A DNA stretch of 64,000 bases from an uncultured Alphaproteobacteria bacterium (GCA_910585375.1 CAJUCZ010000005.1:11380-75379); one strand, 5' to 3'; positions 6,576 through 6,795 are shown, counted from the first letter of the stretch. Notes: generated from the letters alone by a model not told the origin. Numbers and translations are program-made.

Positions 6576-6795
6576 GCAGCGCACCCGGCGGGTGAGGCGT
6601 CAGTTTATATGGTGCCATGAGACCCGCGATGCTCCGGTTGGATGTGTGATGGGGTTTGTGCTTTGAAGAAGACGTACTGTCATTCTGAACGGAGTGAAGA
6701 ATCCAGTTGGTTAATAAAGCTAATTTGTTTGACTGGATCCTTCGTTTCACTCAGGATGACCCGCACGGCGGGTGCGCGGCGGATTGTCCGCTCAC
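6576..6795. repeat. Dispersed palindromic intergenic repeat element, copy A (MITE/RPE-like)
   Basis: Shares the GCGCACCCRGCGGGTGAGGCGTCAGTTT...GGTGCCATGAGACCCGCGAT...CTGTCATTYTGA..GAAGAATCCAGTTGRTTAATAARGCTAATTTGTTTGACTGGATCCTTCG.TTCRCTCAGGATGAC segments with 43111-43358. Contains a long inverted repeat (GTCATTCTGAACGGAGTGAAGAATCC / GGATCCTTCGTTTCACTCAGGATGAC) and imperfect terminal inverted repeats (GCGCACCCGGCGGGTG / CGGCGGGTGCGC). Confidence 0.7.

Follow-up and report, generated by a model that had tools for sequence, protein, structure and literature searches.

Repeat copies and their genomic context

The 64,000-nt stretch analyzed here (the window) comes from an uncultured Alphaproteobacteria bacterium (GCA_910585375.1, CAJUCZ010000005.1:11380-75379). 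It is chromosomal and, in the extended host contig, adjoins dnaA-dnaN-recF. The window holds copies A (6566-6890), B (43094-43473), and C (53965-54274) of a dispersed repeat, all three of them intergenic, as a preliminary description of the sequence had noted. Copy A has a + strand operon on one side and, on the other, a convergent T4SS cluster specifying VirB11, a 1542-aa TrbI/VirB10 protein, CagX/VirB9, and VirB4. Copy B has a T2SSF platform gene upstream (41969-43093), and downstream of it are three tandem bundlin/PilS-like pilin paralogues, the adjacent one at 43474-44034. Both placements agree with the preliminary description. Copy C is found between the RmuC gene and a convergent gene. 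No further units occur in about 15 kb of host contig beyond the window, ARAGORN returned no tRNA or tmRNA, and the pilus region had no match in PLSDB by megablast. The T4SS island of the window lies next to oriC.

Permissive blastn aligned 161 nt of copies A and B at 82% identity (6600-6760 versus 43197-43356; E 3e-40), with a second match of 31 nt at 94%, and self-BLAST at standard settings gave matches of 103 nt (88%, E 2e-26), 28 nt (96%), and 20 nt (100%). The homology claimed earlier for three copies is thus far beyond chance for A and B, but copy C has only linker modules and a tail in common with B (linker, 54087-54179 versus 43156-43249, 77% over 96 nt, E 4e-13; tail, 54179-54251 versus 43352-43425, 74% over 74 nt; blastn). 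A repeat finder also grouped the copies within the 64-kb window (families D9 and D10). Copy C is, to judge from these alignments, a decayed relative of A/B. Its earlier placement at 54040-54190 captured the linker/tail homology; the A/B hairpin is absent, and a divergent, decayed hairpin lies mostly upstream, at 53965-54064. Similarly, the palindrome of about 200 bp shrinks to an 82-nt core (6679-6760 in A and 43275-43356 in B), the remainder being a directional mosaic. The AG-rich tail reported after each copy stands directly 3' of B and C, but in A a second linker intervenes. A start fragment proposed at 53276-53300 is plausible but weak, with a 13-nt exact match and the common CTGCAC start. 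The parts of the three copies are as follows:

6566-6678, + strand: copy A 5' linker, with a small CCGA-ACG-TCGG hairpin inside it (blastn to B and RGIG9125 loci, sequence reading)
6579-6606: GCGCACCCGGCGGGTG module, inside the copy A 5' linker
6600-6660: CCGCG-hairpin module, inside the copy A 5' linker
6661-6678: GTGCTTTGAAG..ACT mini-hairpin, inside the copy A 5' linker
6679-6704, + strand: copy A candidate REP/SRM unit 1, type 1, tGTC ATTCTGAAC gga GTGAAGAAT CCA (unit scan, family covariation)
6705-6734, + strand: copy A dimer spacer, 30 nt, complementary ends AGT...ACT, conserved in the gut alphaproteobacterial lineage
6735-6760, - strand (bottom-strand reading): copy A candidate REP/SRM unit 2, gGTC ATCCTGAGT gaa ACGAAGGAT CCA (unit scan)
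6761-6861, + strand: copy A 3' linker, in which a second CCGCG module with 88% identity to L113 5617-5776 is joined by a short run rich in purines
6862-6890, called on the minus strand only by terminator scan: palindromic terminator-like hairpin flanked on each side by A and T runs, ending the copy A intergenic region
43094-43274, + strand: copy B 5' linker, holding a CCGAATGTCGG hairpin, a CTGCACGGCAGG.. stretch with a 22-nt exact match to L113, and a GCGCACCCAGCGGGTG module (blastn, sequence reading)
43156-43249: two tandem CCGCG modules of copy B
43253-43274: AGTGCTTTGAAGAAGAAGCACT hairpin of copy B
43275-43300, + strand: copy B unit 1, tGTC ATTTTGAGT gca ACGAAGAAT CCA (unit scan)
43301-43330, + strand: copy B dimer spacer, 30 nt
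43331-43356, - strand (bottom strand): copy B unit 2, cGTC ATCCTGAGC gaa GCGAAGGAT CCA (unit scan)
43357-43473, + strand: copy B purine-rich tail, up to the pilin start codon, with a second AGGATGAC at 43372-43379
53275-53305, + strand: linker-start fragment CTGCAC..GCGCACCCAGCGG, immediately following the stop codon of RmuC (13-nt exact match, weak)
53965-54064, unstranded: copy C decayed dimer, second unit type (unit scan, sequence reading)
53965-54003: aberrant unit 1 of copy C, GTT ATTCT...AGAAT CC, followed by a spacer
54037-54064, bottom strand: unit 2 of copy C, gGTC ATCCCCGAG cttga CCCGGTGAT CCA, decayed type 2
54058-54179, + strand: copy C linker, two CCGCG modules (repeat family D10, blastn)
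54180-54274, + strand: copy C purine-rich tail, homologous to the B tail

Numbers with the prefix L denote loci in other genomes. The terminator-like hairpin at 6862-6890 falls outside the repeat family proper and has an orthologous arrangement in L071. Intact type-2 counterparts of the copy C units (tGTC ATTGCCGGA cttga TCCGGCAAT CCA) are present at L113 87-175 and in L025.

The palindromic core is a doublet of self-folding units

The arms of the A/B core had been read as a 26-bp perfect inverted repeat, but those of copy A make 19 Watson-Crick pairs, 4 G.U pairs, and 3 mismatches. Each arm has the form YGTC, ATTCT-GA-NN, GNA loop, NN-GA-AGAAT, and then CCA. Covariation was followed in 131 distinct elements from many phyla, found with a scan pattern that fixed the outer 10+6 nt of each arm and left the inner 10 nt and the spacer free; conservation at the fixed positions is therefore imposed by the pattern rather than observed. 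Within arms, pair 11-17 is Watson-Crick in 129/131 5' arms (G-C in 88, A-T in 41) and, on bottom-strand reading, in 127/131 3' arms, the corresponding figures for pair 12-16 being 119 and 114 of 131. Positions 9-19 and 10-18 are G.A/A.G in 120/131 and become G-C and A-T in a CPR variant, ATTCTGAAT-tta-ATTCAGAAT. The loop is GNA (GCA, GAA, GGA, or GTA). Between arms, position 11 is Watson-Crick in only 70/131 elements, the value expected if each arm chose G/C or A/T independently, and the loop N pairs in 43/131. The outer stems ATTCT/AGAAT (5' arm) and ATCCT/AGGAT (3' arm) are likewise perfect within each arm and leave one U.G and one A.C between arms.

Pair counting on 33 length-matched dimers, which included both window copies, pointed the same way. 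The unit-level (three-hairpin) structure is 96.8% paired, with a covariation of 0.154 versus 0.078 for shuffled sets (reached by 0/500) and 40 double-change cells versus 12 expected, whereas the long hairpin is 88.7% paired versus 88.6% in shuffled sets (188/500), with a covariation of 0.079 versus 0.074. Covariation within but not between arms makes the 82-nt hairpin an inverted doublet of a self-folding 26-nt unit. Thus, covariance across copies supports the folding of each 26-nt arm on itself and not the long arm-to-arm hairpin, and the terminal inverted repeats of the preliminary description are instead two independently evolving, self-folding units. The selected structure is the 26-nt unit with its tandem G.A pairs and GNA triloop, not the long hairpin; each unit is read on the strand with its 5' GTC, and the two units of a dimer lie on opposite strands.

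Nearest-neighbor energies favor the long hairpin (-12 to -13 kcal/mol), and single type-1 units are assigned a DNA energy of -0.2 to -2.7 kcal/mol (z about 0) by parameters that credit neither sheared G.A pairs nor GNA triloops. Loops of this kind are unusually stable in DNA. Since single units are barely stable by these parameters, their folding must rely on G.A/GNA stabilization or on protein binding.

The five units recovered from the window by the unit scan carry the tags tGTC, gGTC, tGTC, cGTC, and gGTC, and all five end in CCA; family-wide, A follows CC in about 80%. At the flanking position -1, T accounts for 79% and C for 15%, and at +1, A accounts for 65% and G for 24%. The spacer has a modal length of 30 nt, and its end pairs are complementary in 93%, 79%, and 60%. 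Type-1 stems comprise 9 stacked pairs, 2 of them G.A/A.G, and type-2 stems comprise 9 Watson-Crick pairs, both starting AT...AT. The loop is 5 nt (cttga) in type 2 and a 3-nt GNA in type 1, which becomes 5 nt when the closing pair is included in it.

Distribution beyond the window

Restriction of the repeat to the loci of the window, with no conserved secondary structure, would have told against the preliminary description, but many copies, with conserved secondary structure, were found in related genomes. A pattern scan of one genome per species yielded more than 119 stretches among the matches listed. These include Verrucomicrobiota, with many from Opitutaceae and Lacunisphaera, and Patescibacteria (Magasanikbacteria, Absconditabacteria, Gracilibacteria, Peribacteria, Moraniibacteria, and Berkelbacteria), together with a Rickettsiales MAG, Gammaproteobacteria, Myxococcales, Chloroflexota, Bacteroidetes, Clostridiales, and Pelodictyon (Chlorobi). 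Two gut alphaproteobacterial MAGs were also matched: MGYG-HGUT-04444, of human gut origin, and RGIG9125, from water-deer rectum, in which about 35 kb of sequence contain at least 11 dimers. When metagenomes were scanned with the 20-nt lineage spacer, 28 of the 29 matches were due to chance and one was a true dimer (L152).

All-versus-all clustering of ORFs from the 119 loci, in which small ORFs are under-sampled, showed recurrent ABC ATPases and a GIY-YIG cluster of 3 loci. Terminator function was considered for the dimers and rejected: no T-run comes after them, separate terminators follow, and dimers are also located between divergent genes.

Probable affiliation with tagged REP sequences

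CGTC-tagged REPs are defined by a terminal unpaired tag, CGTC (or TGTC/CCTC), at one palindrome end, a stem of 8-9 bp whose first two positions are complementary A-T residues, a 4- to 5-nt loop, and a short unpaired 3' CCA (PMC3733652). They occur mainly as HH dimers (tags outside) with conserved spacers of 20-100 nt whose ends are often complementary, are dominant in Alphaproteobacteria, and lie mostly between unidirectional and convergent ORFs, where they are probably transcribed; Neisseria dRS3, Rickettsia RPE-4/RPE-6, and families CGTC-1 to -4 are members (PMC3733652). No tyrosine transposase was found flanked by CGTC repeats, and the pruning applied to that data set dropped units with more than one mismatch unless they were dimer partners (PMC3733652).

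By its anatomy, the A/B core appears to be a tags-outside dimer of CGTC/TGTC-tagged REP units, within a superfamily that includes Neisseria dRS3/NTS and Rickettsia RPE-4/6. The window tags fit, except that the GGTC of two window units is not a listed variant. The AT-first stem of 8-9 pairs and the CCA tail are found in the window units, and copies A and B have their tags outside and a 30-nt spacer with complementary ends that is conserved across the lineage. With E. coli RayT as the single query, no tyrosine transposase emerged in the window or in 125 loci, and most of the dimers are located between unidirectional or convergent genes. In contrast, the type-1 unit has two noncanonical pairs and a 3-nt loop, and the host range extends here to Verrucomicrobiota, Patescibacteria, and other phyla. 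The assignment is at the superfamily level. The earlier suggestion of an RPE-type element was thus close, as RPE-4 and RPE-6 belong to the same superfamily (PMC3733652) and the window units have matching anatomy. The alternation of inverted units with a few conserved linker modules in arrays recalls E. coli BIMEs and Neisseria NIMEs, but here the linker modules and the 24-nt half-unit/purine tails are confined to the gut alphaproteobacterial lineage.

Units at small GIY-YIG genes

In Neisseria, dRS3 is part of a directional 28-nt hairpin, NTS (CGTCATTCCCGCGMAVGCGGGAATCYRG), that has been generalized as the Ssn-related motif, SRM (PMC11893778). This motif is a substrate of the small GIY-YIG nuclease SsnA, which binds and cleaves it in ssDNA but cuts neither the dsDNA nor the RNA form nor the reverse strand; binding depends critically on the C that follows the palindrome, and cleavage on the three bases that precede it (PMC11893778). 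The ssnA genes, whose single GIY-YIG domain is of the cd10448 type, are typically bracketed by the motif, and the system makes NTS-bearing DNA less effective in transforming N. meningitidis (PMC11893778).

The outer 8+8 nt of the window units equal the NTS consensus CGTCATTC...GAATCYRG of PMC11893778, and the GTC before and CCAG after the palindrome are the ends of that consensus. Both kinds of repeat are directional, dispersed hairpins of about 28 nt in which a YGTC tag precedes an AT-first palindrome and C-Y-R-G follows it, and both cluster around surface-protein genes. They differ in the inner stem, which is TGAG/CGAA with tandem G.A and a GNA triloop here and a G+C-rich 8-bp stem with a 4-nt loop in NTS. 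The published SRM search pattern, HGTCWYN(0-2)YYVSBRHN(0-5)WNVSBRGN(0-2)RNCYNB (PMC11893778), has 0 matches in the window, where type-1 units fail at the inner stem, but type-2b units of relatives match it (L113 146-176, L025 1537-1568, and L152 2955-2985).

Single-domain GIY-YIG proteins are encoded in 5/119 dimer loci (six-frame ORFs; Pfam PF01541, E 3e-8 to 3e-16), those of L011, L019, and L076 with E values of 1e-13 to 1e-16. In L011 (Patescibacteria), the GIY-YIG gene (5356-5673) stands between inverted units at 5320-5345 (+) and 5684-5709 (-). The L019 protein (Opitutaceae) has Y6, Y17, and E64 at positions mutated in SsnA, and its gene is preceded by a unit (2650-2675) and followed, after 18 nt, by a dimer. 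A unit also lies 7 nt past the GIY-YIG gene of L076. In loci of Patescibacteria, Opitutaceae, and Magasanikbacteria, units of the same type stand right next to Ssn-like GIY-YIG genes, and the unit-gene-unit arrangement at L011, L019, and L076 resembles that of NTS/SRM. Neither the window and the roughly 15 kb of host contig next to it (about 80 kb in total) nor six gut alphaproteobacterial loci yielded an ssn/GIY-YIG gene.

Our preferred reading, which we hold at a probability of roughly 70%, is that the A/B hairpin is a head-to-head dimer of a 26-nt CGTC/TGTC-tagged REP/SRM unit with its tags outside, a putative strand-specific ssDNA site of the Ssn family, set inside a lineage-specific BIME/NIME-like mosaic. 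Each unit folds on the strand bearing its 5' YGTC into a 5-bp AT-first stem, tandem G.A/A.G, 2 bp, and a GNA triloop followed by CCA, and the long hairpin is a by-product of the inverted arrangement. Upon exposure as ssDNA in replication, transformation, or conjugative transfer, each unit may become a strand-specific site for binding and cleavage by an Ssn-family nuclease, with the C after the palindrome serving for binding and the GTC before it for cleavage, by analogy with SsnA (PMC11893778). The repeats would spread and persist as partners of an Ssn nuclease and not through a transposase (by the same analogy, PMC11893778). Around them, the lineage has built a directional mosaic of linker with small CCGCG hairpins, dimer, and purine-rich tail of decayed 24-nt outer-half-unit repeats. 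Strand-specific ssDNA recognition of each unit by an Ssn-family nuclease is the most likely mechanism on present analysis, given the literature and the unit-gene-unit architecture of the same unit type in other phyla. Effects on mRNA, such as those of a stable hairpin separating pilC from the pilin genes, would, if any, be secondary.

Under this nuclease-partner reading, a striking repeat of an uncultured gut alphaproteobacterium would be assigned to a class with a partner enzyme known only since 2025, with covariation pointing to the 26-nt unit as the selected structure. The unit is a variant outside the SRM pattern, yet it brackets Ssn-like genes in Patescibacteria and Verrucomicrobiota; as the pattern misses it, published SRM counts may underestimate the family. 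Location at pilin, T4SS, and secreted-protein loci is also like that of NTS repeats in Neisseria.

Alternative explanations

The composite could instead act at the RNA level. It would then be cotranscribed with the upstream operon, its hairpins acting as mRNA stabilizers or processing sites and its purine tail serving the gene that follows (pilins, or Cys-rich secreted proteins in relatives) as leader or translation enhancer. The RNA folds of the composites are indeed strong (-114.6 and -114.9 kcal/mol, with z of -3.7 and -4.7), tails lead up to a ribosome-binding site and ATG (B; L119) or a terminator (A; L113; L119), and REPs, being mostly between unidirectional or convergent ORFs, are probably transcribed (PMC3733652). 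In the gut alphaproteobacterial lineage, six dimers have a genuine gene close upstream and all of them are in sense orientation, but 3 or 4 of these are tandem duplicates, which makes them weak evidence; one further sense-oriented dimer rests on a spurious ORF. Across the family, dimers fall in all four orientation classes, 18 of them between divergent genes according to crude ORF calls. Covariation favors unit hairpins on opposite strands rather than a single-strand fold, the conserved flanking hairpin of copy C is on the minus strand, and SsnA does not bind RNA (PMC11893778). The structured-RNA family offered in the preliminary description also fares poorly, with the GNA loops and GTC tags of the two units on opposite strands and no Rfam 15 match at gathering score in the window, where permissive scans gave chance-level hairpin matches only. 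We therefore regard an RNA-level element as unlikely.

Mobility-based explanations account for the inverted architecture but are harder to reconcile with the rest. A classical MITE, i.e., a nonautonomous remnant of a DDE transposon with 26-bp terminal inverted repeats bound by transposase, was also contemplated in the preliminary description and would be a short, dispersed, intergenic element with inverted ends, as the 82-nt core is. However, direct repeats (target-site duplications) of at least 3 nt flank 0/128 insertions, the arms evolve as independent hairpins with arm-to-arm covariation not above that of shuffles, single units and half-unit arrays exist, and no transposase recurs in the 119 loci, all of which renders this origin scarcely credible. 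REPINs, said to have been described by Bertels and Rainey in 2011, are reportedly inverted REP doublets with a GTAG tag and a Y1 HUH transposase. Mobilization by such a RAYT, an IS200/IS605-like tyrosine transposase, would fit an inverted doublet of short imperfect palindromes that has an unpaired tag, can fold as one long hairpin, and leaves no target-site duplication. It is nonetheless very unlikely, since the tag is YGTC and not GTAG, a survey of CGTC repeats found none flanking a tyrosine transposase (PMC3733652), and the unit-bracketed genes specify GIY-YIG and not Y1 enzymes. No RAYT was found either: a phmmer search with E. coli RayT, a single query of limited sensitivity, returned nothing at E<=10 in the window and 125 loci (about 1 Mb). 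Finally, the CAGGATG motif in the 3' arm and tails, which resembles the CsrB repeat CAGGA(U/C/A)G, might form an array that titrates a CsrA-type RNA-binding protein. AGGATGAC occurs 5 times in the window versus about 1 expected, three of them in elements, and relatives carry 24-nt arrays of TCAGGATGAC; yet the motif is the outer half of the REP unit and mostly in stem, tails are confined to one lineage, and no CsrA homologue was found in the window or related loci, so that such a role is highly improbable.

A lineage-specific mosaic around the dimers

All remaining modules of the three copies are found repeatedly in RGIG9125 and MGYG-HGUT-04444 and keep a single orientation toward the dimer: the CTGCACGGCAGG.. 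start, the GCGCACCCRGCGGGTG module, one or two CCGCG-hairpin modules, and the GTGCTTTGAAG mini-hairpin. Relatives also carry arrays of dimer, linker, and dimer, as at L113 5585-5900 (unit, dimer, linker, dimer). Purine-rich tails are restricted to the gut alphaproteobacterial lineage, where the downstream purine content is 0.70 versus 0.49 elsewhere. The L113 tail is a 24-nt tandem repeat of 6.4 copies, TCAGGATGACAAAGAAAAAAGGAA, made up of the outer half of the unit and a purine run, and the B tail retains one extra AGGATGAC. The tails are, as far as their sequences tell, decayed 24-nt half-unit arrays. The linker modules and half-unit/purine tails are lineage-specific and undescribed.

Mosaics are sited after stop codons, between operons, and upstream of tandem genes for surface or secreted proteins. 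In RGIG9125, dimers and tails separate tandem paralogues of Cys-rich secreted proteins, and in the window they precede the three pilin paralogues. The composite may conceivably be a footprint or a working part of Ssn activity, and not passive debris. Repeated ssDNA cleavage 5' of GTC with slipped repair might have generated the 24-nt arrays, or selection might favor composites as borders at which incoming or recombining ssDNA is trimmed near the T4SS island and tandem paralogues for surface proteins (pilins here, Cys-rich proteins in RGIG9125). We consider this quite unlikely, but if it were true, the lineage would be a natural record of SRM repeat proliferation, which was left open by PMC3733652 and PMC11893778.

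A full-text literature search with spurious peptide strings and DNA strings returned noise only. The arms explain such peptides, which recur in MAG annotations, e.g., ...CHSERSEESS... and ...SFASLRMT (L119 4070-4294).

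Minus-strand hairpin and adjoining tract

Near the third repeat composite of the window (copy C), the minus strand carries a strongly structured element bordered by a tract of skewed composition.

53572-53760, minus strand: long hairpin
53572-53589, minus strand: terminator that closes the hairpin
53306-53560, plus strand: pyrimidine-rich tract of ~250 nt, with AT skew to -0.79

The hairpin folds as RNA at -71.5 kcal/mol (z -5.2). Its region is matched at 89% identity over 242 nt in the gut alphaproteobacterial MAG RGIG9125 (locus L113, 3950-4190), and two further genomic loci, L071 and L065, hold copies more diverged than that of L113. 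Among the four sequences compared, compensatory changes affect 9 of the 22 stem pairs, and one U.G pair is kept on the minus strand only. Rfam returned no match for the hairpin, which is a candidate small RNA or additional repeat module. Because the neighboring tract is rich in pyrimidines on the plus strand, it is purine-rich on the minus strand, where it lies downstream of the terminator. This tract, also kept in L113 and L071, gives rise to a spurious 116-aa ORF (53287-53637).

Repeat-derived sequences in relatives

L113 also contains, at 4401-4561, a tandem array with a period of 24 nt and 6.4 copies, consisting of TCAGGATGAC and a purine run; in the 26-nt REP unit, the repeated sequence corresponds to the GTC tag plus the first half of the stem. 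An array of the same type occurs at positions 120-230 of another genomic locus, L015. Elsewhere in RGIG9125 (L119, 1864-5093), three tandem paralogues encode Cys-rich secreted proteins of 451, 187, and 251 aa, each separated from the next by a REP dimer and purine-rich tail. The L119 ORF at 4070-4294 is spurious, the dimer being translated as ...CHSERSEESS...SFASLRMT...

Coding repeats and paralogues in the window

Tandem duplication and internal repetition are also seen in the following coding regions.

43474-45717: tandem set of three type IVb-like pilins, paralogous to one another (186, 198, and 208 aa), directly 3' of copy B
8365-16160, minus strand: TrbI/VirB10 homologue of the T4SS (1,542 aa) and a neighboring 1,054-aa protein
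38852-39196: 105-bp repeat, three tandem copies with 86-93% identity, within the ORF 38609-40267
3299-3554: 49-nt repeat, four copies spaced by 78, 51, and 78 nt

The second pilin varies slightly between strains (194 aa in strain locus L002 vs 198 aa in L001). The VirB10 homologue is unusually large. "Beta-flower" repeats (Pfam Bflower_2, DUF3659) fill both it and its neighbor and show at the DNA level as repeats with a 51-nt period (families D1 and D3-D5). The 49-nt repeat encodes a ...GQDWEWEYEE... motif in a 1,146-aa protein (338-3778) for which Pfam gave no significant match.

Chromosomal position

On the host contig (L158, 10876-16007), rpsT, dnaA, dnaN, and recF lie about 1-5 kb past the right end of the window, so that the T4SS and pilus islands, together with the repeats, adjoin the region of the chromosomal replication origin.
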